Of a stretch of 64,000 bases of DNA, positions 533 through 54,078 are shown in pieces. Position 1 is the first letter of the stretch. Every line of letters begins with the position of its first letter. The stretch covers positions 13,555-77,554 of the forward strand of contig CAZTMA010000004.1 of assembly GCA_964614645.1 (NCBI GenBank). Direction: 5' to 3'. The stretch is from an uncultured Anaerolineales bacterium. Lineage in GTDB: Bacteria; Chloroflexota; Anaerolineae; CG2-30-64-16. Below the pieces are notes generated by a model. The model was not told the origin of the DNA and searched no databases. It worked only from the letters and a program-made list of their open reading frames with translations. The position numbers and the translations under genes were made by a program.

Positions 533-2037
533 GCGTACCGATGTCCGACGCCAACCGGCCTGACCGCACACCTGCAGGGGACGCCGATATCCCCGCCTGG
601 GTCGCGCGCCTGAACAGCGCGCCCGAGGCCCGGGCTGCCTTTCACATCCACATGGTCGGCATCGGCGGCACCGGCCTGTCGGCCATCGCCGGGTTCTTGC
701 TCCAGCGCGGCTTCACAGTGACCGGCTCGGACCAGCGGCCCAACGAAGCGACCGATGAGCTGGCCGGTCGCGGCGTCACCGTGTACCGCGGCCATCAGGC
801 CGAGCATATTGCCGGCGCCGACCTGGTGCTGGTCTCGTCCGCCGTGCCGGAGAATAACCCCGAGATTATTGCGGCGCGCGCCGCGGGCATCCCGATTGTC
901 AAGCGGTCGGACTTCCTCGGCCCGCTCATCGAAGGGCATCACGGCATCGGCGTAGCAGGCAGCCACGGCAAGACGACGACGACCAGCATGGTTGCGATTG
1001 TGCTGCTGCGCGCGGGCATGGACCCCAGCTTCATCGTCGGCGGACGGATTGCCGTCGGCCCGGCGGAAGGCACGATGATGTCCGCGACCGTCGCCGCCCG
1101 CGCGGGCGAGGGCCCCTTCGTCATCGAAGCGGACGAATATGACGGCATGTTCCTGGGGCTGCGTCTGGAAATCGGCATCGTCACCAACGTGGACTGGGAT
1201 CACGTCGATTGCTACCCCACCCCGGCGAGCTTCGCCGATGCGTTCCGCAGGTACGTCGCCCAGCTCCCTGCGCACGGCCTGCTCATCGTGTGCGCGGATG
1301 ACGCGGGCGCGCTGGCGCTGCGCGACGCGCTGCAGCCGGGCGTGGCGGTCGAGACCTACGGCCTGGCCGACGGCGCCGACTGGCAGGCGCGCGACCTCGC
1401 GCCGAACGAGCGCGGCGGATTCGATGCGGAAGCGTGGCACGCAGGCACGCCGGTGGCCCATCTGAGCCTGTCCGTGCCGGGCCGCCATAACGTGCGTAAC
1501 GCGCTCGCCGCGCTGGCCGCGGCGAACTGGCACCGCATCCCACCGGCCCGCGCGGCCATCATGCTGCGCGACTTCCGGGGCGCGGGGCGGCGCTTCGAGC
1601 TGGTGGGCGAGGCAGATGGCGTGACGGTCATCGACGACTATGCCCATCACCCAACCGAAGTCGCGGCGACCCTGTCGGCCGCGCGGCTGCGCTATGCCAC
1701 GCGGCGCATCTGGGCCGTATTCCAGCCGCACACCTTCAGCCGGACGAAGGCCCTGCTGCGCGACTACGCACACAGCTTCGATGACGCGGACCGGGTGCTG
1801 TTCCTGGATATCTACCCGGCGCGCGAAAAAATCGACCTGGGGATGCACAGCCGGCTCCTGCTCGAGACCGTCAAGCACGAGGGCGCGGCCTACGTCGGAG
1901 GCATCGACGCTGCGGTCGACCGCCTGCTGGCCGAGGTCGAACCGGACGACATCGTCATCACCATGAGCGCGGGGGATGGCAACCTGGCCGGCCAACTGTT
2001 GCTCGACCGGCTGCGCGAGCGGGAGAAACGGGGGTGA
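529..2037 (+). CDS. murC: UDP-N-acetylmuramate--L-alanine ligase
   Basis: Mur ligase motifs GIGGTGLSAIAG (N-terminal Rossmann) and GSHGKTTTTSMV (P-loop); start ATG 529 overlaps upstream stop; conserved dcw position. Confidence 0.9.
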   Translation: MSVPMSDANRPDRTPAGDADIPAWVARLNSAPEARAAFHIHMVGIGGTGLSAIAGFLLQRGFTVTGSDQRPNEATDELAGRGVTVYRGHQAEHIAGADLVLVSSAVPENNPEIIAARAAGIPIVKRSDFLGPLIEGHHGIGVAGSHGKTTTTSMVAIVLLRAGMDPSFIVGGRIAVGPAEGTMMSATVAARAGEGPFVIEADEYDGMFLGLRLEIGIVTNVDWDHVDCYPTPASFADAFRRYVAQLPAHGLLIVCADDAGALALRDALQPGVAVETYGLADGADWQARDLAPNERGGFDAEAWHAGTPVAHLSLSVPGRHNVRNALAALAAANWHRIPPARAAIMLRDFRGAGRRFELVGEADGVTVIDDYAHHPTEVAATLSAARLRYATRRIWAVFQPHTFSRTKALLRDYAHSFDDADRVLFLDIYPAREKIDLGMHSRLLLETVKHEGAAYVGGIDAAVDRLLAEVEPDDIVITMSAGDGNLAGQLLLDRLREREKRG

Positions 2038-3092
2038 GCGCGCTGGCGGCCGCAGCGGAACGCACAGGCGTCGAGTTGCGACGCGCGGAACCGCTCGCCC
2101 GCCACACGACCTTCCGCATCGGCGGCCCGGCAGAGTGGTACGCGGTCGCGACGAGCACTGCACAACTGGCCGCGCTGGCTGACGCGGGGCTGGCGAACGG
2201 CTTGGCCGTGACCGTCCTCGGCGGCGGCAGCAACGTCCTGGTGGCGGATGAGGGCATACGCGGGCTCGTCATCGCCAACCAGGCGCGCGGCCACGGCGTT
2301 CAGCCCGCTGCGGACGTTGTAGATGTTGTGGAGTCCGCATCCTCAGATGCGGACCGCTCGCAAACGGAGCTCGTATCCTCAGATGCGAGCTCCTCGAGAA
2401 CCGCAGGGGACGGCGCGATTGTCCTCGTCGCTGATTCCGGCGTGCTGCTGGCAGGGCTCGCCCGCTGGGCCATCCGCAATGGGCTGAGCGGGCTGGAATG
2501 GGCCGTCAGCGTGCCTGGGACGGTCGGCGGCGCGGTCATCGGGAATGCGGGCGCGCACGGCAGCGACACCGCTGCAAACCTAGCGTGGGCGGAGGTGCAC
2601 TACCCCGGCCAGGGGACGGAACGGCTGACTTGCGAGACGCTGGCGTACACTTACCGCAGCAGCCTGCTCAAGCGGCAACTGGCCGAGAGCGACGCCCTTG
2701 CGCCGGCCCCGGTCGTCTTGTCCGCTGCGTTCAGCCTGACCTCGGGCGACACTGTGGAGATGGCCGCCCGTGCGGATGGCTACCTGGCCCGGCGCCGTGC
2801 CAGCCAGCCGGTCGAGCCGAGCGCCGGCAGCATCTTTCGCAACCCGCCTGGCGATTATGCGGGGCGGCTGGTCGAATCAGTGGGGCTGAAAGGCCATGTC
2901 ATCGGCGGCGCGCAGGTTTCGCCCCGCCATGCGAATTTCATCATCAACACGAGCAGCGCGACCGCGGCGGATGTCGTAGCGCTGATGAACCTGATGCGCC
3001 GCCGGGTCTATGAGGTGACTGGGCACGAACTCGTGCCCGAAATCCTGTTCATCGGCGCATGGGCGAGCCAGCCGCCGCTGGAAACTTTGTAG
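2034..3092 (+). CDS. murB: UDP-N-acetylenolpyruvoylglucosamine reductase, with ~45-aa in-frame insertion encoded by hairpin repeats
   Basis: RHTTFRIGGPAEWY FAD-binding N-terminus, GIPGTVGGAV, C-terminal MurB domain; GTG start overlapping murC stop (GTGA); insertion ...ESASSDADRSQTELVSSDASSS... between conserved blocks. Confidence 0.88.
   Translation: MSALAAAAERTGVELRRAEPLARHTTFRIGGPAEWYAVATSTAQLAALADAGLANGLAVTVLGGGSNVLVADEGIRGLVIANQARGHGVQPAADVVDVVESASSDADRSQTELVSSDASSSRTAGDGAIVLVADSGVLLAGLARWAIRNGLSGLEWAVSVPGTVGGAVIGNAGAHGSDTAANLAWAEVHYPGQGTERLTCETLAYTYRSSLLKRQLAESDALAPAPVVLSAAFSLTSGDTVEMAARADGYLARRRASQPVEPSAGSIFRNPPGDYAGRLVESVGLKGHVIGGAQVSPRHANFIINTSSATAADVVALMNLMRRRVYEVTGHELVPEILFIGAWASQPPLETL
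2330..2393 (+). repeat. two tandem GGAGY-stem-ATCCTCAGAT-stem' hairpin units (REP-like) embedded in-frame in murB
   Basis: ggagtccgcATCCTCAGATgcggac and ggagctcgtATCCTCAGATgcgagctcc; same unit family as at 17457-17564 and 53171-53246. Confidence 0.7.
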
Positions 3093-5362: not shown

Positions 5363-6591
5363 GTGAGTGAGTTGATTTGCGCCCTCGACGTGGGGACGAC
5401 GAAAGTGTGTGCCCTCATCGGCAAGCTCGATGACAACAATGCGTTGCGGGTCATCGGTGTGGGCCGGGTGCCGGCGCGCGGCCTGCGCCGGGGGGTCGTC
5501 GTCAACACCGTCGAGGCAACCGCCTGCATCGGCCAGGCGATTGACGCAGCCGAAGCCGCAGCCGGCGTGCCGCTCGAAGCGGCCTATGTCGGCATTTCCG
5601 GCGCACATATCGGCGCAATTGGCAGCAAGGGGGTCACAATCCTGGGCCGCAACGGGCGCAAGATTACGCCGGAGGATTGCCAGCGTGCACTGGACCAGGC
5701 CCGCGATATTGCGCTGCCGCACAATCGCGATATCATCAACGCAGTTGCGCGAAGCTACACAGTCGATGATAATCAGGATGTACAAAATCCGATCGGCATG
5801 TTCGCCTACCGGCTGGAAGTGGATGCCAGCCTCATCACTGGCGCGACATCCGCCATCACGAACCTGACGAATTGCGTTACCGAGAACGGCGTCGAGATCG
5901 AGGACCTCGTGCTGCAGCCGCTGGCGTCTGCAGAGGCCGTACTGACTAACGATGAACGCCAGGCCGGCGTGGCCGTGGTGGACATCGGTGGCGGCACCAC
6001 CGACATGGCAATCTTCCTCGAATCGGCAGCCTGGCACACACACGTGCTGGACGTGGGCGGCGACCACTTTGTGCGCGACGTGGCAGCCGGCCTGCGAATG
6101 CCTTATGACAAAGCGGAATCGCTCATCCGGCAGTTCGGTCACGCACTGCCCCACCTCGTTCCACCTGATGCTGAGGGCCCGCCTTCGGTGAAGGCGGTTC
6201 TCAGGTCATCCAGCGGCGTGCGCTGGCTGACATCATCTACTTCCGGGCGGAAGAAGTTCTGGACCTCATCGTAGATGAGATCAAACGCAGCGGCTATGAC
6301 GGGCTATTGCCCGCCGGCGTGGTCCTGACAGGCGGGGTGGCCCAGCTCGACGGCATCGGCGAGATGGCCCACGACCGGCTGACCTGGCCCGTGCGCATCG
6401 GCCGGCCCAACGGAATTGGTGGGGCCGTCGTTGACTTGAGCAGCCCGGAATATGCTACGGCAGTCGGACTGCTCCTCTGGGGGTTGCGCCGCGACAGCCA
6501 GCCGCGCGTGGCAACTCCGCCGGGCGGCGCGCCGCCCTGGCAACGCATTCTCGATTACTTGAAGCGCATTTTGCCGATTCCGACATCTTAA
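5363..6591 (+). CDS. ftsA: cell division protein FtsA, reading frame broken by single-nt frameshift in G3C3 run at ~6175-6181 (ORFs 5363-6274 and 6307-6591 are one gene)
   Basis: Actin-like ATPase motifs (DVGTTKV, VVDIGGGTTD); C-terminal half (LADIIYFRAEEVLDLIVDEIKRSGYDGLLPAGVVLTGG...) continues in +1 frame from 6181 while frame of 5363 hits a stop at 6272; frame 1 has TGA at 6172. Confidence 0.85.
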
Positions 6592-6646
6592 CTATGTACA
6601 GAAGGTTTCCGACAGGAACCACCCTATAGCGTAAAAGGAGCGTCAG

Positions 6647-7738
6647 ATGAACCCGAAAGGACAACAACCGGCCTTTGTTGAGAATCCGGCCCAAATCAAG
6701 GTGCTTGGCGTGGGCGGCGGTGGTTCCAACGCGGTTAACCGCATGATCGAACAGGGGATCCGTGGCGTGGAGTTCATCGCAATCAACACGGATGCCCAGG
6801 CCCTGATGCTGGCGAATGCGCCGCAGCGTCTCCGCATCGGCGACAAGCTCACCAAGGGGTTGGGCGCGGGCGGCAATCCCGAGATCGGGGACAAGGCCGC
6901 GCAAGAGTCCGCCGAGGAGATCAAGGCCCTGATGAAGGGCACCGACATGGTGTTCGTGACGTGCGGCATGGGCGGCGGCACAGGCACAGGCGCCGCGCCG
7001 GTCATCGCCAAACTCGCAAAGGATTCGGGCGCGCTGACGATCGGGGTTGTCACGAAGCCGTTCACCTTCGAAGGCGCACGCCGCCGCCGGCTGGCAGATG
7101 ATGGCATCAAGCGGCTCAAGGACAGCGTGGATACGCTCATCGTGATCCCGAATGACCGGCTGCTGCAGGTGGTGGACAAGAAGGCCAGCATCCAGCAGGC
7201 GTTCCTGGTGGCCGACGATGTGCTGCGCCAAGGCATCCAGGGCATCTCGGAACTCATCACGATCCCCGGCCTCATCAACCTGGACTTCGCGGACGTGCGG
7301 ACGGTGATGAACGAAGGCGGCTCCGCCCTGATGGCCATCGGCCAATCCAGCGGCGACAACCGCGCCCAGCAGGCCGCGGAACAGGCCATCCACAGCGCGC
7401 TGCTGGACGTGAGCATCGAGGGCGCCGGCGGCATCCTGTTCAATGTCACGGGTGGACCGGACTTGAGCCTGTACGAGGTCAACGAGGCTGCGGAGATCAT
7501 CCGCCGCACAGCCGATCCGGATGCGAACATCATCTTCGGTGCCGTCATCGACCCGAACGTCAAGGACAGCATCCGCATCACCGTCATCGCGACCGGTTTC
7601 GACATGGCTCACGAGCAGCAAGCGCCCGTGGTTGATGAGAGCCACGGCGCGACGACGACGCTGCCGTTCCCGAAGCGGGAATACCAGCGCGACGACCTGG
7701 ATATCCCGGCCTTCCTGCGGCGGTCGCGCCAAAGTTAA
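6647..7738 (+). CDS. ftsZ: cell division GTPase FtsZ
   Basis: [11 protein letters not shown], tubulin signature [16 protein letters not shown]7 loop [11 protein letters not shown]; AAAGGAG SD. Confidence 0.95.
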
Positions 7739-8773: not shown

Positions 8774-11700
8774 ATGAAGCCCCAGGACAAAGCACGGCCT
8801 TTTGCGCCCGCATTGACACCGCCCGCCGAGTTGGAGCTTTCAGAGAATAGCCAGCAGGTACTGCGCAAACGCTATCTGCGGCGTGGGCTGGACGGTCAAC
8901 CCACCGAAACTATCGAGGGAATGTTCCGGCGGGTAGCCCGGGCCGTTGCGGAACCGGACGCCGCCCAAGGGTATGACATTCACAGCACGGAAGACAGCTT
9001 TTATGCGCTGTTGACCGATTTACGTTTCTTCCCAAATTCTCCTACTTTTACCGGGGCGGGCACGCCCCTGGGCCAGCTTGCTGCTTGCTTCGTCCTGCCT
9101 ATATCCGACGACATGGGCCGCGACTCCGCCGGTATCTTCCAAACACTGCGCGATGCTGCGCTCATCCAGCAGACCGGCGGCGGCAACGGCTTCTCCTTTT
9201 CGAACCTGCGTCCCAAGGGTGACTCCGTAGCCTCCAGCGCGGGCGTTGCCACCGGGCCGGTCGGCTTCCTGCGTGTGTACGACACGGCCTTCGGTGAGGT
9301 GGCACAGGGGGGAACCCGGCGCGGGGCCAATATGGCCGTGCTGCGCGTGGACCACCCCGACATCGAAGAATTCATCACCTGCAAGGCGCAGGAAGGTCAG
9401 ATCACCAACTTCAACATCTCTGTCGGCATTACCGATGCGTTCATGCAGGCGGTCGAAGCGGATACCGATTTCGCGCTGGTCAATCCACGCGACGGCAAGA
9501 CCTGGCGCACCGTGCGGGCGCGTGACCTGTTCGACAAGGTCGTCACCTACGCGCACCACAACGGTGAGCCGGGCGCGCTGTTCCTCGATGCAGCCAACCG
9601 CACGAACCCGGTGCCGCATCTCTACGAGCTGGCAGCCACCAACCCCTGCTTCACCGGCGACGCGCGTGTCGCGACGGATCAGGGTTTCCTGTCGCTGGCC
9701 GAACTGCACGCCCTCAACAAGCCGCTCGCTGTGGCAACCGACGAGCGCGCCCGACCGGAGTGGGTGCGTCAGGCTGGGTTCGGCACTGCCAGCCCGGTGA
9801 TGCTGACGCGCCGGAACACTCCCGTCCTGGCCCTGCGCACGACCCATGGCTACCGCGTGACCGCCACGCCTGACCACCGTTTCCTGACTGCCGACCGCGG
9901 CTACGTGCCACTGCAGGAGCTAAAACCCGGCGAGCGTTTGCTCATCCAGTCGGAAGAGGGACCCTGGTCGCAGCAGTTCGAGCTCCCCAATGTCCGCTAT
10001 ATACAGGAGAAGATGGCCGTCATGGGCCGCGGCGGCGATCACGCCAGCGGACGCACGGTTACGCGCCATGATTTCAGCGAGCTCTATGCCGCGGTGCCCA
10101 CACTGTGGAGTTATGAACTAGGTGTGGCGCTCGGCTGGCTCGTCGGCGACGGTTGGCTGAGCCCCACGAGCGGTTCGCCTGTCGGGCTGGCCTTCGGAGT
10201 CGAAGAAGGTGGTTATTGCGGGCTTGAGACCCTCCAACCCAACCTTCAGCAGTGGTTCGGCCCAGGCCATGTTCACGAGCGCGGCAGCGTCCGACAGTTG
10301 ACCTATGGCCGGCTGCCGTACGAGTTCTTCGCCTCCCTGGGGGTCTCGACCGCCTCAGCCACGGAGAAGCGGGTTCCCACCAGCCTCTGGCAGGCGCCCC
10401 GTGACGCGGTGCGCGGCTTCCTTGCCGGCCTGTTCAGCGCGGATGGCTCCGTCCAGGTCAATGAAGCGAAGCAGGACTGCACTGTGCGGCTGGCCAGCTC
10501 ATCGCGCGGGCTGATCGAGGATGTGCAGCTGCTCCTCGCCAACTTCGGTATTGCCTCCCGCATCTACCGGCGCCGTGACCAGATGACCCGCCCGATGCCC
10601 GATGGCAAGGGTGGGAGCAGGAACTACACGAGCGCACCGCAGTTCGAGCTGGTGATCGGCAAGTCGAACCGCGTCCGCTTTGCCCAGGTGATCGGCTTCG
10701 CACATCCGCGCAAGCAGACCCGTCTGCTGGAACACGCCGCAGGGGCCGTCCGCGGCGCGTACCGGGAGCGTTTCGAAGATCGCGTCGCCAGCATCGAAGA
10801 CGCCGGGACAGCGGATGTCTATGATCTCACCGAACCGTTGACCAGCAGCTTCATCGCCAACGGGTTCGTCGTGCACAACTGCGGCGAGCAGTGGCTCGGC
10901 CCGTACGAAAACTGCTGCCTGGGCTCCATCAACCTCGCTCAACATGTCACGCCAGACGGCCAGGTCGATTGGGAGAAGCTGCGCGAGAGCACGGTGGTCT
11001 CCACCCGCTTCCTGGACAACGTGGTCGACGCGAACAAGTACGTGCCGGCCGTGCCTGCGCTGCGTGAAGCCGCGCTGCGCGCCCGGCGCATCGGCCTCGG
11101 CATCATGGGGCTGGGCGACCTGATGTACCAGTTGGGCGTGCGCTACGGCTCGGAAGAGGGCCAGGAGTTCGCCGCGCAGGTCATGGAGTTCGTGCGCTAC
11201 CACTGCATGTTGACGAGCGTCGAGCTGGCCCAGGAGCGCGGACCGTTCCTCGCCATCACGGGCAGCATCTACGACCCGGCGAACCTGCGCTGGCAGCCGC
11301 CTCAGCCCATCACATCTTACCGGCACGACTGGGGCCGCCCGGTCGTGGACTGGCACCGCGTGGTGGATGGCATCAAGCAGCACGGCATCCGCAACGCCGC
11401 GCAGACCACCGTCGCACCCACCGGCACCATCGGGACGGTCGCGGGCTGCGAAGGCTACGGCTGCGAGCCGGTCTTCGCGCTGGCCTACACGCGGACGGTC
11501 AAGGACGGTACGCGCGACCTCAAGCTGACTTACACCAGCCCGTTGTTCGAGGCTGCGCTGGAGCGTGCGGGCCTGGACAAGGCCACGCGCGAACGCATCA
11601 GCGAACAGGTCAGCGCGGTCGGCAGTTGCCAGGGCCTGGAGGAAGTGCCGGAAGCCCTGCGCCACGTCTTCGTCGTATCCCAGGACATCACTGCGGAAGA

Positions 11701-12499
11701 GCACGTCCGCATGCAGGCGGCCATCCAGGCTTTCGTCGACAATTCGATCAGCAAGACGATTAACTTTCCGCCCGCAGCCACGGTGGATGATGTGGCGGAG
11801 GCCTACCTGCTCGGCTGGCATCTCGGCTGCAAGGGGCTGACGGTCTACGTCACGGGCAGCCGGCAGGAGGTCGTGCTGGAGACGAAGGCCACAGCCGAGT
11901 CGAAGGCGGCAGGTGAGGCCGCGTCCGCGGTCCCTTCCTCACCGGTTGAGACCGCGACCAAGTACCCGATGATGAAGCGTCGCCCGCGGCCCACCACCCT
12001 GCACGGTATGACCTACCGCAAGGAGACACCGCTGGGGACAGCCTTCGTCACTGTGAATATCAACGGCGGCAACCGGCCGTTCGAGGTCTTCATGAACGTG
12101 GGAAAGGCCGGCAGCGATGTCGCGGCGGTCTCCGAGGCGTTGGGGCGCCTCATCTCGCTCATCCTGCGCCTGCCCTCACCGCTTGACGAGAACGAGCGCC
12201 TGCAGGAGGTCATCGACCAGCTTGCCGGCATCGGCGGCGGCCGGTCGCTCGGCTTCGGCGCCAACCGGGTTCGGTCGCTGCCCGACGCCGTGGCCCAGGT
12301 CCTGCGCGAACATCTCAACAGCCACTTCCCGTCGGACAGCGGCGCGGTGGGAGAAAACGCCGAGCCTTATGTCGAACAGCTCCCGCTGCCCATCGCTGAC
12401 CGCGTGATCGGGGACCTGTGTCCGGACTGCGGCCAGGCGACGTTTATCCCGACGGAGGGCTGCCGCAAATGCTACGCCTGCGGCTACAGCGAATGCTGA
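8774..12499 (+). CDS. nrdJ: class II (adenosylcobalamin-dependent) ribonucleotide reductase NrdJ, intein-containing, Cys-rich C-terminal tail
   Basis: RNR barrel motifs; active-site NPC|GEQ split by intein; C-terminal CPDCGQ...[12 protein letters not shown]; GAGAGGAG SD. Confidence 0.9.
9647..10879 (+). mobile_element. intein (411 aa) with LAGLIDADG homing endonuclease domain inserted in NPC|GEQ motif of nrdJ
   Basis: Begins CFTGDARV (Cys1), ends FVVHN followed by +1 Cys of CGEQ; internal LAGLIDADG blocks GWLVGDGWL and [11 protein letters not shown]. Confidence 0.85.
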
Positions 12500-16471: not shown

Positions 16472-17446
16472 ATGCCACTCACCTTCGATTTCCCTCTCGA
16501 CAAGCTCCAGACCTACCAGGGCATCAACCCGCGACCCGCGGACTTCAACGCCTACTGGGACGCCGCGCTCGCGGAGATGCACGCGCTCGACCCACAGGTC
16601 GAACTCGTGCCCGCGGAGTTCCAGGCACCCGGCGCGGAATGCTTCCACCTGTACTTCACCGGCGTCGGCGGCGCACGCGTGCATGCCAAGCTGCTGCGGC
16701 CCAAGCACACCGCATCTGCTGCCCCGGCAGTCGTAATGTTCCACGGCTACAGCGGGCACTCGGGCGACTGGTTCGATAAGCTGGGCTATGTGGGCGCGGG
16801 CTACACCGTGGCCGCGCTGGACTGCCGCGGGCAGGGCGGCCTGTCGGAGGACAACAGCGACGTAGTGGGCAACACGCATCGCGGCCACATCATCCGCGGG
16901 CTGGCCGATGCGCTGGCCGGGCGGCCGGATAAGCTGCTGTTCCGCCAGATCTTCCTCGACACCGCCCAGCTGGCGCGCATCGTCATGGACATGCCGGGCG
17001 TGGATGCGACGCGCGTGGGTGCAACCGGCGGCAGCCAGGGCGGCGCACTGACCGTCGCATGTATGGCGCTGGAGCCGCGCATCAAGCGCGCTGCACCTAT
17101 CTTCCCCTTCCTTAGCGACTACCTGCGCGTCTGGCAGATGGACCTGGCGAAGGACGCCTACGAGGAGCTCCGCACCTTCTTCCGCCTCTTCGACCCGCGC
17201 CACCAGCAGGAAGCGGCCGTCTTCGAACAGCTCGGCTACGTGGACATCCAGCACCTGGCCCCGCGCATCCGCGCGGAGGTGCTCTGGCCCATCGGCCTGA
17301 TGGATCAAATCTGCCCGCCATCCAGCCAGTTTGCGGCCTACAACAAGATCACGTCACCGAAACGCATGGCGATTTACCCGGACTTCGGCCACGAGGGTCT
17401 GCCCGGCGTGAACGACATCGTTTTCGAGTTCCTGATGGGGCTGTAA
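16472..17446 (+). CDS. acetyl xylan esterase / cephalosporin-C deacetylase (CE7, AXE1 family)
   Basis: CE7 N-terminus DFPLDKLQTYQGINPRPADFNAYWD; GGSQGG nucleophile motif; alpha/beta hydrolase. Confidence 0.85.
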   Translation: MPLTFDFPLDKLQTYQGINPRPADFNAYWDAALAEMHALDPQVELVPAEFQAPGAECFHLYFTGVGGARVHAKLLRPKHTASAAPAVVMFHGYSGHSGDWFDKLGYVGAGYTVAALDCRGQGGLSEDNSDVVGNTHRGHIIRGLADALAGRPDKLLFRQIFLDTAQLARIVMDMPGVDATRVGATGGSQGGALTVACMALEPRIKRAAPIFPFLSDYLRVWQMDLAKDAYEELRTFFRLFDPRHQQEAAVFEQLGYVDIQHLAPRIRAEVLWPIGLMDQICPPSSQFAAYNKITSPKRMAIYPDFGHEGLPGVNDIVFEFLMGL

Positions 17447-17452
17447 TCCCAA

Positions 17453-17566
17453 ACCCGCGGAGTGGGCATCCTCAGATGCCCACGTCGGACCCGTTCCGCG
17501 TCTGAGGACGCTCCACTCCTCACGCAAGAAACGCGGAGTGGGCATCTGAGGATGCCCACTCCGCAC
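17453..17566. repeat. composite palindromic REP-like element: 3 hairpin units of the GGAGT-stem-ATC-CTCA/TGAG-GAT-stem'-ACTCC family
   Basis: cggagtgggcatcCTCAgatgcccac ... gcgtcTGAGgacgc ... gcggagtgggcatcTGAGgatgcccactccgc; first and last units are exact reverse complements. Confidence 0.7.
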
Positions 17567-17604
17567 GTCCCTCCCTGGCAGCCGACCGGCTGCTAGTGTC
17601 CCGG

Positions 17605-18051
17605 TCAGCCGCAGTCATCGTCGGGCGCACGCAGGCGCTCCACCTCCGGGTCCACCGCAAACCAATGCCCGTTGAACAGGCCATACGTCGCCCCGCTGGA
17701 AAGCACCCCACCCTCCGCCGGCACCCACCGTACCCCTTCACGCATTAACGATACGTCACCGCGATAAGGCGCGCCGTCAGGTGCAGCACGGTCGTTGCCG
17801 TAATCGGGATCGTAGCGAAAGAAAGCTTCCACGCGAACGGTCGCACGATTGAGGCCGGGCAATAGCACGCGCGTCTTCACCTGCTGCGGCGTCAGGTCCC
17901 GGGTGTACGTGCTCGCCAGATAGCGGCGCACCGCCAGCGACGGCCCGGCCCAGCTGAACACGATGACGGCGGCGACCGCGACGACGCACAGCCACACGGG
18001 CCACAGCACGCGCCGTCTGATAATCGGTTGAGAATTTGCACTCATTGGCAC
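17605..18051 (-). CDS. hypothetical membrane-anchored protein (N-terminal TM)
   Basis: 148-aa ORF; TM WPVWLCVVAVAAVIVFSWAG; no family match. Confidence 0.45.
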   Translation of the reverse strand: MPMSANSQPIIRRRVLWPVWLCVVAVAAVIVFSWAGPSLAVRRYLASTYTRDLTPQQVKTRVLLPGLNRATVRVEAFFRYDPDYGNDRAAPDGAPYRGDVSLMREGVRWVPAEGGVLSSGATYGLFNGHWFAVDPEVERLRAPDDDCG

Positions 18052-23941: not shown

Positions 23942-24012
23942 GCCACCGAGAACACAGAGAGCGTAGAGTCTTTCTCTCTCAATAACTCAGTGTCCTCTGT
24001 GACCTCTGTGGC
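23942..24012. repeat. MITE-like element with GCCAC(C/A)GAG...CTCTGTGGC terminal inverted repeats, inserted between actD and actE
   Basis: gccaccgagaacacagagagcgtagagtctttctctctcaataactcagtgtcctctgtgacctctgtggc; 25-nt 3' block shared with copy at 47521-47601. Confidence 0.55.
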
Positions 24013-24589
24013 TAGAAAGCTAAGCTTCCTGCTCCTGGGACTCTTCGCGCTGGTGGCGCTGACGGGCTGCCAGGCGATGGCCGACCAGCCGCGCTATGAT
24101 CCGCTGGAGCCGAGCGCGTTCTTCGCGGACGGGCAGTCAGCGCGGCCGCAGGTCGAGGGGTCTGTAGCGCAGGGCCAGTTGCGCACCAGCGACGTGCGCT
24201 ATACCGGCCAGTTCAACGGTGCGCCGGCGACCGAGTTTCCCTTCGAACTGACCGCCGACCTGCTCGAGCGCGGCCGGCAGGAGTATGACATTTACTGCAC
24301 GCCCTGTCACGGCTTCACCGGCGCGGGCGACGGCATGGTCATCCAGCGCGGATTCCCTGCGCCGCAGACCTTCCACCAGGACCGCCTGCGCACGGCGGCG
24401 CCCGGCTACTTCTTCCAGGTCATCACCAACGGGTTTGGCCGGATGCAACCGTACGCCAGCCAGATCCCCGATGTGGATGACCGCTGGGCCATCGCCGCTT
24501 ACGTGCGGGCCCTGCAACTCAGCCAGGCGGCGCCCGCCGAGGCCCTGCCGGCGGAAGACATGCAGCAACTCGGAGGGGCAACCCAATGA
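24008..24589 (+). CDS. actE: ACIII monoheme cytochrome c lipoprotein ActE (alternative GTG start 23924 overlapping actD stop)
   Basis: Signal peptide + lipobox LFALVALTGC; single CTPCHG heme motif; 4-nt overlap with actF. Confidence 0.75.
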   Translation: MARKLSFLLLGLFALVALTGCQAMADQPRYDPLEPSAFFADGQSARPQVEGSVAQGQLRTSDVRYTGQFNGAPATEFPFELTADLLERGRQEYDIYCTPCHGFTGAGDGMVIQRGFPAPQTFHQDRLRTAAPGYFFQVITNGFGRMQPYASQIPDVDDRWAIAAYVRALQLSQAAPAEALPAEDMQQLGGATQ

Positions 24590-37017: not shown

Positions 37018-39420
37018 ATGAAGAGAACACTCGTGGTCCTCCTTGCATTGGTGGTCGTCTTGACCACCCTCGCGGCCTGTTCAGGCACCGCTGGTCCCGC
37101 CGGCCCTGCCGGCCCGCAAGGTCCTGCCGGTCCCGCAGGCCCTGCTGGCCCTGCCGGTCCTGCTGGTCCTGCAGGCCCCGCTGGCGCGGAAGGCGCAGCA
37201 GGCGTGACGATGGTCGCCGACACGACGACCCCGCCCGAGACCTGCGCGATCTGCCACAAGGGCGCTGGCGAAAAGCACCAGGCGTCCTACGATGACTTGT
37301 ACCAGGACGCCGTGATTCGGGTCACCGATGTGGCTTATGCCTTCACGGCGGCGCCCGATACAACCACCATCACCTTCAAGATGACGAAGAACGGCGAGCC
37401 ATTCGACCCGAAGCAGGCGGATAATATATCCATCTACTTCGTGCCCTACGCGGACGGCAAATTCCAGTTCGACCCGCCCGCCGAACGCGTGTCGTTGAAG
37501 GGAACGCTGGATTCGGATGGCGCCGGCAACGGGACGAGCACGCTGGTCGAGAAGGAAGCGGGCGCCGAGGATTTCGTTGACTACACCGACATCAGCGGCG
37601 TCAACGGCCTCATCGTCATCTACGGCCGCGACGAAACCGTCCAGCGGCTGCCAGGCACGCGCGTCGACCAGAACCGGTTCCCGTTCGCGGCAGTGCTGGA
37701 GACCGGCGCAGGCGTCGACTACGTTTCGCCGGCCAACAACGATGGCTGCGAACTCTGCCACACGCAGCCCTATCTCAAACACAGCTACATCTACGGCCAG
37801 GTCGACAACGACTCTGCCACCGACTTCTACACCTGCAAGGCCTGCCATCTCGACAATGGCACGGGCGAGCACTTCGAATGGCAGCTCCTGGTGGAGGATC
37901 CGGAGCTGGCCGCGCAGTTCCTGGCTGGCGAGGTGGAGCTGACCGAAGAGCAACATCAGCAGTTCGCGTACAACCCGTCCGTGATGAACGACGTGCATAT
38001 GTCGCATGCCATGGAATTCCCGTATCCGCAGTCCATGGCGAACTGCGTCACCTGCCACGAAGGCAAGCTCGACGCCATCCTGACGGACGCAGCCTTCAAC
38101 ATCACGACCTGCCGCAGCTGCCATCCCATGACGGGCGCGAAGGCTGAGTCCGCTGAGGGTGAGGACCCGGCCTACGACACGACCGCTCTGGCGCTGAAGA
38201 CGCTCCTGACCGGCCCGCATGCCGACATGGACCTGGCGACGACCGACTGCTCGACCTGCCACGGCGAAGGCAAGATGGCGGGCACCTGGAGCCTGGTCCA
38301 TACCGGGTATGACGATATGATCTACACGGCGGACGGCATCCGGTATTCCGAGGCCATCTCCGTCACCATCGAGAGCGCCACGTTGGACGGCGATACGCTC
38401 AGCGTGAAGTTCAGCGCGGCCGAATCGCCGGACATCGAAGGCGTGGACGCAGCCGACATCGTACCCACCGTCCTGGTGGGCCTGTACGGCTGGGACACGA
38501 AGGACTTCATCGTCGGCGCGCACGAGCGTCTGTTCGACGATAACGGCGACGGCGCGATCACCAGCGACGATAGCCGGACCCTGGAGTTCGAAGTCGGCGC
38601 CGAGCATCCTCGCATGAAGACGGTCTCGGCCGAAGGTGGCAGCTGGGAAGTCACTGCCGACTTGGCGCCCTGGAAGGACCTCATCGCGGACGGCACTGTG
38701 AAGCGCGTCGAAGTGGGCGTCCTGCCAGCGCTGGTCGTCGATGAGCAGGAACTTGCCATCGATGCGGCCACCAAGACGTTCGACCTGGCCGCGAACGCGT
38801 TCGATGACGAGTACTTCCAGCCCATCGCGGACATCGAACGCTGCGAGAACTGCCATGCGGCGCTCGCCACGAACTTCCACAGCCCGGATTACGGCGGCAG
38901 TGTCACTGCCTGCCGGATGTGCCATGTCACCAAGTCGGGTGGCTCGCACCTGGAGATGCAGTCGCGGTCGCTGGATTCCTATGCGCACGCGATCCACTCC
39001 GGCCAGGCCTTCGACATCGCTGATGTCGACTTCGGCGACCCGGTGCAGGCCCTGGCGTACGAGCACCACATCGGGTTCCCGTATCCGACACATGCCAACA
39101 CGAACTGCGAGTCCTGCCACTTCCCGGGCACCTACGAAGTGCCTGACCAGGCCAAGTCGCTGCCGGGGCTGCTTTCGGCATCCGACGACAACGAGACGCT
39201 GGACCGGGACATCGAGGACGTGCCGTCCTATGTCACGGGGCCGGCCACTCGGGCCTGCGGCGGCTGCCACCGGGCGGAGCTGATCAAGGAAGACAGCGCA
39301 GGTGGGTTCGCCATGCTGAAAGAGCACATGGACATGGGCGGCTACTTCATTGAAGCTGGGGAGAAGCCTGCAGAGACGCTCCAGTCAGTGTTCGACGAGG
39401 TCATGCCGCTGTTCAAGTAA
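37018..39420 (+). CDS. decaheme c-type cytochrome lipoprotein with N-terminal collagen-like (Gly-Pro-Ala)n tether
   Basis: Signal peptide + lipobox LAACSG; ~13 Gly-X-Y triplets; ten CxxCH motifs (CAICH, CELCH, CKACH, CVTCH, CRSCH, CSTCH, CENCH, CRMCH, CESCH, CGGCH). Confidence 0.85.
37083..37197 (+). repeat. tandem 9-bp (GGNCCNGCN) repeats encoding collagen-like GPAGPAGPQ... segment
   Basis: ggtcccgccggccctgccggcccgcaaggtcctgcc... ~12 degenerate 9-bp units. Confidence 0.7.
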
Positions 39421-47520: not shown

Positions 47521-47601
47521 GCCACAGAGGACACCGAGGACACTGAGATTTGAGCCTCGCAACTCAAAATCACTCTCTATGTCCTCTGTGCCCTCTGTGG
47601 C
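47521..47601. repeat. MITE-like element, GCCACAGAGG...CCTCTGTGGC terminal inverted repeats (second full copy)
   Basis: gccacagaggacaccgaggacactgag...tgtcctctgtgccctctgtggc; shares TGTCCTCTGTG(A/C)CCTCTGTGGCTA with copy at 23942-24012. Confidence 0.55.
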
Positions 47602-47623
47602 TATTCTAATTCACTGGCGCGTC

Positions 47624-53102: not shown

Positions 53103-53170
53103 GACGACCTTGTCAGAAACTGGAGTCGAGGCTGGCGAGTGTTGACCGTTAATTTCTGTGATCGACCGGT

Positions 53171-53246
53171 GGAGTTCCGCATCCTCAGATGCGGAACGGC
53201 CCGCCTGAGAGGCAGCACCGTTTGCATCTGAGGATGCAAACTCCTC
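53171..53246. repeat. composite palindromic REP-like element: two mirror hairpin units (CTCA and TGAG loops) flanked by GGAGT...ACTCC
   Basis: ggagttccgcatcCTCAgatgcggaac ... gtttgcatcTGAGgatgcaaactcc; preceded at 53121 by GGAGTCGAGGCT motif. Confidence 0.7.
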
Positions 53247-53253
53247 TTTATAC

Positions 53254-54078
53254 TCAGAAGATGTTCTGCTGGACGTTGAACGCGCGGCAGATGGTGCGCA
53301 TTTCATCGTCCGACAGGCCCTCGGCCTGCTCGCCGTTGACCAGGTTCATGTACTCGTACCTGGCGCCGGTCTCTGCATACTCGATGCGGTCGGAGGCGCG
53401 CTTCACGGACTGGTCCGAGCGGGCCATCACGCCGTGCTTGGCCCACAGCACGACCCGGTGCGTGCGCAGGGTTTCGACCGTTGCCGCCATCAGCTCCGGG
53501 GAGCCCGGCAGGCGGAACGGGATGACGCCGACTCCCTCGGGCAGGTTGATGATGGTCTCCGGCTGCCAGCGGAGCAGCCGCCGGTTGAGAAAAGACTCGT
53601 CCAGATAGCGCGGGACGTGGCTCAGATAGGTCAGGTGCGGCGGCTGCGCGTGGATGACGGCGTGGAAGTTCGTGCCGGTCAGCGCAACCTGGTCGCGGTG
53701 CACCGAGAGGTGCGAGTTGAACTCGCTGGTCAGCCGGGCGTACAGGCGGCGCTGCGAGGTGTAGAGTCTGCCCGTGACGCCGCCTTCATCCACGATGACG
53801 CAGCCCAGATTTGCCGCGGGGTCGTGGATGATCTCGCGCAACCGCCGGCCCGACCCGCTCACCAGGAACGCACGGCCCGCCAGTTCGGGCAGGGGCTCCG
53901 GCAGGACGAGCGTCTCGACATTCGGGAAGACGCGCCGGGGGTCCAGGGGCCAGCCCACATACACCGAGATGTTGCCCGCGGCCGCTTCGGTTGCGTCGAT
54001 CTCGGACATGCGCTGCCCGGCCTCGCCCATCAGGGTCAGCAGCTCGCTGAGTTCAGGATAAGGTGTTTCGATTGCCAC
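53254..54078 (-). CDS. class II aldolase/adducin-family protein
   Basis: Class II aldolase fold motifs (metal-binding His region); 274 aa. Confidence 0.7.
   Translation of the reverse strand: MAIETPYPELSELLTLMGEAGQRMSEIDATEAAAGNISVYVGWPLDPRRVFPNVETLVLPEPLPELAGRAFLVSGSGRRLREIIHDPAANLGCVIVDEGGVTGRLYTSQRRLYARLTSEFNSHLSVHRDQVALTGTNFHAVIHAQPPHLTYLSHVPRYLDESFLNRRLLRWQPETIINLPEGVGVIPFRLPGSPELMAATVETLRTHRVVLWAKHGVMARSDQSVKRASDRIEYAETGARYEYMNLVNGEQAEGLSDDEMRTICRAFNVQQNIF

Follow-up and report, generated by a model that had tools for sequence, protein, structure and literature searches.

The stretch of 64,000 nucleotides considered here, hereafter the window, comes from an uncultured Anaerolineales bacterium (contig CAZTMA010000004.1). 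Its gene content, with murC-murB-ddl-ftsQ-ftsA-ftsZ, an alternative-complex-III-like cluster and leuS, is that of an Anaerolineae-like member of the Chloroflexota, and its nearest relatives are the metagenome-assembled genomes (MAGs) 'Anaerolineae bacterium R69_164' and 'Chloroflexi bacterium ADurb.Bin325'. Short hairpin-forming repeat units of a single family are located at three loci of the window, two of which are intergenic. The first of these is the spacer between the stop codon of an acetyl xylan esterase (AXE) gene (16472-17446, + strand) and a convergent conserved hypothetical gene (17605-18051, - strand). The second is a doublet at 53169-53246, which lies 7 nt 3' of the stop codon of a class II aldolase gene (53254-54078, - strand). 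The third locus is inside murB. A first-pass annotation of the AXE spacer had put forward two explanations for such hairpins, namely repetitive extragenic palindromic (REP) elements that a REP-associated tyrosine transposase (RAYT) would recognise and, alternatively, a structured RNA motif.

Pattern matching and a covariance model, R1, which was trained on related copies from other genomes, identified seven units of the family at the three loci. The exact 10-mer core ATCCTCAGAT has six matches in the window, all of them at these loci (2339+, 2375+, 17468+, 17544-, 53181+ and 53226-), which confirms the hairpins and copies reported previously. When one mismatch is allowed there are nine matches, versus 2.3 +/- 1.65 in shuffled sequences, and none of 100 shuffles reaches nine. 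R1 finds all six units that have the ATCCTCAGAT core, with scores of 30-47 bits. Read with CTCA as the loop, the layout of the window units is G-[A/C/T]-GGAG-(T)-NN-GC-ATC / CTCA / GAT-GC-N'N'-AC. The units, and the gene that hosts two of them, are as follows.

murB open reading frame (ORF), 2034..3092, + strand: host of units 1 and 2; Pfam domains MurB_C and FAD_binding_4, the latter split at the insert; the insert is seen in protein and DNA alignments.
Unit 1, 2328..2354, + strand: foot GTGGAG, stem GTCCGCATC/GATGCGGAC, loop CTCA; in frame inside murB; R1 score 46.6 bits.
Unit 2, 2364..2393, + strand: foot ACGGAG, 12-bp stem GGAGCTCGTATC/GATGCGAGCTCC with one G.T wobble (CTCGT/GCGAG), loop CTCA; R1 score 29.9 bits.
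Unit 3, 17457..17483, + strand: foot GCGGAG, stem GTGGGCATC/GATGCCCAC, loop CTCA; left arm of the composite element in the AXE spacer; R1 score 46.0 bits.
Unit 4, 17485..17524, - strand: the middle hairpin of the AXE spacer, a diverged member, GAGGAGTG-GA-GCGTC/CTCA/GACGC-GG-AACGG; R1 score 22.6 bits, E 3e-4.
Unit 5, 17533..17564, - strand: a unit with a double foot and a perfect 14-bp stem GCGGAGTGGGCATC/GATGCCCACTCCGC, the CTCA loop being on the minus strand; R1 score 45.9 bits on the - strand and 29.8 bits on the + strand.
Unit 6, 53169..53197, + strand: foot GTGGAG, 10-bp stem GTTCCGCATC/GATGCGGAAC, loop CTCA; R1 score 31.5 bits.
Unit 7, 53220..53246, - strand: foot GAGGAG, stem GTTTGCATC/GATGCAAAC; forms with unit 6 a doublet whose feet point outward; R1 score 45.1 bits.

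The AXE spacer has the most elaborate arrangement. Unit 3, which begins 11 nt 3' of the AXE stop codon, reads GCGGAG-TGGGCATC/CTCA/GATGCCCA-C. It forms a feet-outward doublet with unit 4, whose hairpin GCGTC/TGAG/GACGC is found at 17498-17511 and whose closing pair has undergone a compensatory change from A-T to G-C. Based on its R1 score and on the GAGGAG foot and AACGG tail of the family, both of which are present in it, the middle hairpin belongs to the same family as its neighbours, so that the three hairpins of the spacer are three members of one family. Unit 5 is the exact reverse complement of unit 3, lengthened to a 14-bp stem, and it folds with -30.4 kcal/mol (z -8). The first and third hairpins are therefore reverse complements of each other, as the first-pass annotation had stated, with 27-nt arms (17457-17483 and 17538-17564) that are 100% complementary. 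The whole element of about 110 bp is not the mirror palindrome that had been described, since the 54 nt between the arms are not symmetric; it is an inverted pair plus a third unit. As single-stranded DNA, segment 17450-17570 folds with -48.1 kcal/mol (z = -10).

The copies that had been placed at 2330 and 2366 are genuine units, but they are not intergenic, as both lie in frame within murB. Unit 2 is a direct repeat of unit 1 with a period of 36 nt, or 12 codons, and it folds with -21.9 kcal/mol (z -6.5). The two units are translated in frame as ESASSDADRSQT and ELVSSDASSSRT, and these two 36-nt segments make up 24 amino acids of an insert of about 30. In both protein and DNA alignments, MurB homologues with 82-88% identity lack about 30 residues at precisely this insert point. 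The commonest form of the unit, GGAGTGAGC, carries TGA directly after the foot; the murB copies have TCC and CTC instead, so the reading frame stays open. In L120, the murB of MAG R69_164 and the closest homologue, a shorter in-frame insert is found at the same codon position (about 10280-10330) with a different hairpin, GGGGCGGAC…GTCCACCCC. This different insert indicates that the murB loop has been struck or remodelled more than once.

The AXE spacer also differs between close relatives. In loci L126 and L127, in which AXE is 94% identical, the spacer is 46 nt long and holds no unit. In L124, a 98% relative, the segment 3976-4079, which is orthologous to window 17447-17575, carries another palindromic insert, AAACCTTCGAGGTCT…AGACCTCGAAGGTTT around an inner GCCAGG-CTTCA-CCTGGC. 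This different insert suggests that the AXE spacer may be a hot spot for several repeat families. A terminator-like hairpin further downstream of AXE, GCAGCCGACCGGCTGC, is common to the window, L124, L126 and L127. No R1 unit was found across 82 kb of DNA from syntenic relatives. Target-site duplications were seen neither at 26 doublet flanks among the listed loci (the matches listed from the scan described below) nor on comparison of the filled and empty AXE sites. This pattern of presence and absence is typical of DNA that is mobile, or is at least gained and lost, and not of a conserved regulatory site.

A pattern scan with GGAG-N3-4-GCATCCTCAGATGC, using one genome per species, gave at least 116 blocks of 8 kb from more than 40 Chloroflexota genomes, and R1 gave 188 matches in 661 kb of related genomes. 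Further copies, the absence of which would have spoken against the first-pass proposal, are thus abundant. The hosts among the matches listed are nearly all Chloroflexota, mostly Anaerolineae; they comprise Anaerolineae, Caldilineales/Caldilineaceae, Ardenticatenaceae, Promineifilaceae/Leptofilum and some 'Dehalococcoidia' single-cell genomes. Read again with the CTCA loop, the family consensus among these matches is G-[A/C]-GGAG-T-NN-GC-ATC / CTCA / GAT-GC-N'N'-A-C-(GG). In the same set, the G at position -2 from GGAG is 97% conserved although it was outside the search pattern, and position -1 is A or C. The foot is one-sided, being present with or without a complementary ACTCC downstream. 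The hairpin has at least 9 bp, of which the five loop-proximal pairs (GCATC/GATGC), together with the CTCA tetraloop, are nearly fixed. The two to three distal pairs vary freely, provided that they are paired or form a tandem G.A. In GGAGTGAGCATC-CTCA-GATGCGAACGG, the commonest form among the matches listed, a tandem G.A/A.G mismatch takes the exact place of the Watson-Crick pairs of other copies.

Neighbouring units at the listed loci are arranged as feet-outward inverted pairs in 51 cases, versus 6 in the opposite arrangement, with cores 14-46 nt apart; single units, direct repeats and arrays are also frequent there. Positions with at least 100 open codons on both sides account for 8% of units, compared with 53% of random positions from the same loci. 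Heterodimer doublets, in which a unit with the ATCCTCAGAT core is combined with a unit with the ATTCTCAAAT core, are common (L069, L034, L028, L082, L044 and L045). Tandem arrays of composite units with a period of about 100-140 nt can be found in L033 (6270-6940), L077 (320-1160) and L049 (3585-3822), and L033 has at least 12 units in 700 nt, with (GT)n-like spacers. In L091, a 115-nt inverted repeat with a unit flanks 3.4 kb of DNA, but this segment is not an insertion sequence (IS), as its interior genes are ordinary (anthranilate synthase and a glycosyltransferase-like ORF). GTAG is found at the foot position in only a few of the listed copies, such as L080, which has GTGTAGG where others have GCGGAGT. 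An enrichment of GTAG upstream of the units is real, but it is limited to a sub-family with an additional distal TCAGTAGATC in few genomes, and GTAG was rejected as a general foot on account of this restriction. Traces of the distal TCAGTAGATC can be seen 5' of window units 1, 3 and 6; 5' of unit 1 there is GTAGAT at 2316-2321.

The stems covary. In 121 units with a fixed register from the listed loci, 81 double-change cells were counted, compared with 28 +/- 6 in shuffles and with 0 of 500 shuffles reaching this number; the counts are not probabilities, because related copies are not independent events. Three stem pairs were changed on both sides in this set, and the covariation score was 0.179 compared with 0.082, every slid control being far lower. 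A replicate of 100 units, retrieved through RAYT protein homology and aligned by fitting to the covariance model, gave 84 double-change cells versus 31.5 +/- 5.4 (0 of 500), with double changes at six of nine pairs. Closing-pair variants in which the CTCA loop is kept include GCATT-CTCA-AATGC, with at least nine copies in several genomes, GCATG-CTCA-CATGC, and GCGTC-CTCA-GACGC, found in window unit 4 and in L087. Of the 100 protein-retrieved units, 81 have CTCA as loop and 74 have GAGGAG or GCGGAG as foot. The first-pass annotation had noted that copies keep the loop and swap the inner stem, and had concluded that selection acts on the structure rather than on the sequence. The fixed loop and the co-varying stems hold, apart from the G.T wobble of the copy at 2366. 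The conclusion needs to be amended, as the loop and the G[A/C]GGAG foot are conserved as sequence, and in 36-40% of copies at the listed loci the two central stem positions are non-Watson-Crick, mostly tandem G.A/A.G. In short, foot and loop are conserved as sequence while the stems covary as pairs. Besides selection, hairpin-templated correction could contribute to the covariation.

A search for the enzyme was made with E. coli TnpA_REP, whose sequence was checked against PDB entry 4ER8 (165/165 residues), as query against every ORF. In L101, a Caldilineaceae chromosome, a RAYT-like ORF begins 10 nt 3' of a unit with an R1 score of 48.6 bits (7674-7711), and the same unit provides the TGA stop codon of the upstream gene. 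Homologues of this RAYT belong to PF01797, and one was named 'REP element-mobilizing transposase RayT' by JGI. In L131, a RAYT gene has three units on each side, the nearest of which overlaps its stop codon; the gene is frameshifted in that assembly, and the motifs DHIHLLI and YIHRNP are present. The reconstructed L131 protein scores 124 bits with the NCBIfam model NF047646 'REP-associated tyrosine transposase' (cut-off 80), and proteins P0244 and P0245 score 89 and 87 bits, respectively. With the IS200 model NF033573, the unit-linked proteins score 20-28 bits, below the cut-off of 55. Their best match in the PDB is E. coli TnpA_REP (4ER8), with the HuH (DHIHLLI) and Tyr (YIHRNP) motifs aligned.

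Other approaches to the neighbouring genes did not point to an enzyme. A regular expression for the RAYT motif matched no ORF of the at least 116 loci or of the window, and the L101 RAYT escaped it because its ORF ends before the Tyr motif. All-against-all clustering of neighbouring ORFs at the listed loci gave no recurrent partner gene, only common families (histidine kinases, ABC transporters, TPR/cyclase proteins and aldo-keto reductases), and none of the ORFs between spaced units in L073, L079 and L088 is transposase-like.

The linkage was then seen on a larger scale in metagenomes. A scan with a RAYT alignment gave 80 loci, with up to 1.5 kb of flank, and R1 identified 115 units in 30 of them. 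In all 30 unit-bearing loci a unit lies within 150 nt of the gene; across the 80 loci, no unit was found more than 500 nt from the RAYT gene or within it. Occupancy depends on identity to the RAYT query: units are present at 28 of 47 loci with an identity of at least 59%, at 2 of 22 with 55-58% and at 0 of 11 below 55%. Upstream units are mostly on the strand of the gene and downstream units mostly on the opposite strand, so the RAYT gene sits within a feet-outward pair. A RAYT gene within feet-outward units is a REPtron. The linked RAYT genes resemble fixed chromosomal genes among ordinary neighbours and not a multicopy IS. In L128 (3930-3990) and L129 (2268-2330), a RAYT homologue with 59% identity to the L101 fragment follows a GCGGAGTGCGCAC foot with different hairpins, GCCCAC-GTGGGC and GGGCACG-CCC-CGTGCCC. 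These two loci suggest that the foot may be more conserved than the hairpin across the RAYT clade.

Taken together, the anatomy of the units, their copy number and extragenic bias, the covariation, their presence or absence between relatives, the in-frame insert in murB and the linkage to RAYT genes make it very probable that the units are REP-type elements, that is, short palindromic repeats mobilised or maintained by a RAYT, an HUH/Y1 enzyme. The REP/RAYT part of the first-pass proposal is thus supported by the RAYT genes of L101, L131 and the 30 metagenomic loci, which are flanked by units of the family. By analogy with E. coli TnpA_REP and with IS200/IS605 TnpA (PMC6006769), the RAYT would bind the hairpin extruded in single-stranded DNA. 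Recognition would be by sequence for the CTCA loop and the G[A/C]GGAG foot and by shape for the stem, and cleavage beside the foot would be followed by rejoining of the ends. Units or doublets could thereby be excised, copied and inserted elsewhere without target-site duplication. Both the single-stranded substrate and the position of cleavage are those that we infer from these enzymes.

Several points weigh against this assignment. Classical REPs have GT[A/G]G as their canonical foot (PMC6006769, PMC3733652), the place of which is taken here by GGAG, and for that reason the family is best named a non-canonical, GGAG-foot REP family and not a canonical GTAG REP. The RAYT gene that the first-pass annotation had suggested looking for was found beside units in related genomes, but there is none in the 64-kb window; a cognate RAYT is presumably encoded in the window's own genome, the linkage having been seen in related DNA. 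Furthermore, 50 of the 80 metagenomic RAYT homologue loci have no R1 match; divergence of their repeats is a possible explanation, L128 having the same GCGGAGT foot but different hairpins. Truncation or a frameshift affects some of the RAYT copies. Finally, the taxonomic range is a lower bound, possibly biased by database order.

The second half of the first-pass proposal was a structured RNA motif, such as a cis-regulatory element, a terminator or an mRNA-stabilising hairpin, in which loop and stems are selected as RNA. As RNA, the hairpins do fold stably (-12 to -30 kcal/mol, z -3.5 to -8), most units lie directly 3' of stop codons, and tandem G.A pairs and one G.U wobble are RNA-friendly, while the other strand would have C.A or pyrimidine mismatches. 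Effects of REPs on mRNA stability are also known in other organisms (PMC3733652). Against this, no Rfam match reaches the gathering score in the window, and at the locus there are only generic long hairpins far below the threshold. There is no U-tract, the commonest form of the family folds as RNA no better than its shuffles (z -0.9), and the prevailing form is a strand-symmetric inverted doublet. Moreover, units are found in both orientations and within coding sequence, the orthologous spacer of close relatives lacks them, and they are tightly clustered at a transposase gene. We therefore find a structured RNA motif unlikely in the extreme and without support from Rfam or from the strand-symmetric doublets; side effects at the RNA level, for example protection of 3' ends as with other REPs, are possible. 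Another reading is a chromosomal role for the sites as DNA. Binding sites of a host protein (nucleoid, gyrase or restriction-like) that reads GCATC-CTCA-GATGC would be compatible with a RAYT origin. E. coli REPs are reported to bind gyrase, IHF and Pol I, and the core sequence is conserved over several orders. Nothing in the analysis indicates such a protein, though, while the polymorphism between near relatives argues against a site-specific function and the stem covariation indicates a hairpin ligand and not a duplex, so that retention for such a function is hardly to be expected.

Two other kinds of mobile DNA could resemble the units. A miniature inverted-repeat transposable element (MITE) would be moved by a DDE transposase that recognises terminal inverted repeats, and the doublets do resemble such repeats around a short spacer, the inverted repeat reaching outward to TCAGTAGATC…GATCTACTGA in some genomes. 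The lack of target-site duplications at the 26 doublet flanks and at the AXE sites speaks against it, as does the clustering of neighbouring genes at the listed loci, in which no recurrent DDE transposase was found near units. Since single units and direct repeats are common as well, and the gene linked to the units encodes a Y1 HUH enzyme, a MITE is scarcely credible. The other kind would be orphaned, PATE-like end-hairpins of IS200/IS605 elements, moved by a classical TnpA, for which the chemistry would be the same. In L084, a classical IS200 TnpA (6140-6760; E 8e-21 against an IS608 TnpA sequence) is found 123 nt from a doublet. This IS has end hairpins of its own, CCACCCC…GGGGTGG and CCACTGCC…GGCAGTGG, which differ from the units, and its TnpA was rejected as the mobilising enzyme on that ground; its position beside the doublet may be a coincidence or reflect a shared preference for such spacers. 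The unit-linked proteins fall below the IS200 cut-off and above the RAYT cut-off, and the linked genes look fixed and chromosomal, unlike a multicopy IS, which leaves an origin as IS ends very improbable.

As a RAYT-associated REP family, the units can be compared with several known systems. With the E. coli REPs, their composite arrangements (bacterial interspersed mosaic elements, BIMEs) and TnpA_REP (4ER8), they share the short, imperfect palindrome and its conserved 5' foot on one side only, the inverted doublets, the preference for extragenic sites, the high copy number and the position of units beside a Y1 HUH gene, and the heterodimer doublets recall the Y/Z REP pairs of BIMEs. They differ in that the foot is G[A/C]GGAG where E. 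coli has GT[A/G]G, that a short hairpin has an invariant CTCA tetraloop, and that the hairpin sequence is conserved over several orders and not within one species group. The linked RAYT is only distantly related to E. coli TnpA_REP (E 4e-6). The feet-outward layout of the doublets is that of BIMEs and of REPINs. The REPIN-RAYT systems of Pseudomonas (Bertels and Rainey, cited in PMC6006769) are similar in that here, too, the replicating unit may be an inverted doublet, which is able to fold as a single long hairpin, and in that the RAYT seems to be a single fixed gene amid repeat clusters. The present family differs in that doublet partners are often of different sub-types (ATCCTCAGAT with ATTCTCAAAT) and in that single units and direct arrays are common.

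The GTAG- and CGTC-tagged superfamilies of Di Nocera et al. 2013 (PMC3733652) rest on the same concept of a tetranucleotide tag. In that study, palindromic units supply stop codons to neighbouring genes, REPs occur inside ORFs, and units for the most part follow unidirectional or convergent genes. The sole Chloroflexi REP found in the literature, a GTAG family of Chloroflexus aggregans, is listed there. The tag GGAG belongs to neither superfamily and is absent from the text and supplements of that paper, and the hosts here are Chloroflexota of the Anaerolineae type. The murB insert has a parallel in Rickettsia palindromic elements (RPEs) and other intragenic REPs, in which an in-frame insert adds a short peptide to an essential housekeeping gene; RPEs are 100-150 bp long with a CGTC tag, compared with two 36-nt units in murB. 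With IS200/IS605 TnpA, the linked enzymes would share HUH/Y1 chemistry and the use of a hairpin and an adjacent short sequence in single-stranded DNA, a likeness that the weak secondary match to NF033573 probably reflects; the units, unlike the subterminal hairpins of IS200/IS605, are not IS ends. Atypical feet have been reported for RAYT subclass 2.6 and class 3 (PMC6006769), to which the GGAG-foot family is comparable. The core sequence was found in no searchable paper, and the literature on RAYT, REPIN and Chloroflexi yielded no description of a GGAG-foot family.

The window holds other elements as well. A second, unrelated palindromic family is represented in the spacer at 47.5 kb by an element of about 85 nt with inverted repeats (47521-47603; GCCACAGAGGACACCGAGGACACTGAG … CTCTATGTCCTCTGTGCCCTCTGTGGC) and by a half-copy, CTCAGTGTCCTCTGTGACCTCTGTGGC, at 23986-24012 (region 23950-24015). 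The large subunit of a class II-type ribonucleotide reductase (RNR; ORF 8774-12499) contains an intein with a LAGLIDADG domain at 9649-10879. The syntenic RNR genes of L121 and L123 align on both sides of it and lack this segment of about 1.2 kb, which indicates an intein that is present in one lineage and absent from others. Segment 37018-39420 encodes a multihaem cytochrome that resembles MtrC/MtrF and carries at its N-terminus a collagen-like Gly-X-Y repeat, seen in the DNA as a 9-nt periodic repeat at 37088-37204.

Proteobacteria and Cyanobacteria are well-known hosts of REP/RAYT systems, which to our knowledge have barely been described in Chloroflexota. The GGAG-foot family is an ordinary kind of selfish DNA, yet as a family it is undescribed in the searchable literature. 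It widens the known range of foot sequences and shows an unusually clean split between the parts that are read as sequence, loop and foot, and the part that is read as shape, the stem. For annotation, R1 provides a simple signature for repeats that break assemblies, donate stop codons and can sit in frame in essential genes such as murB, and neither a regulatory RNA nor the AXE terminator is an appropriate annotation for the hairpins of the AXE spacer. More tentatively, and with doubt prevailing, we suggest an anciently conserved RAYT-REP partnership with a GGAG foot and a sequence-specific CTCA tetraloop that spans a whole class of Chloroflexota; it may include Anaerolineales, Caldilineales, Ardenticatenales, Promineifilales-type genomes and some 'Dehalococcoidia' single-cell genomes. 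If this were so, the code by which the enzyme recognises its target would already be given by the natural covariation, with loop and foot read as sequence, the stem read as shape and tandem G.A tolerated. The family would then rank among the REP families with the broadest and deepest conservation and would offer a ready system for the study of RAYT specificity.

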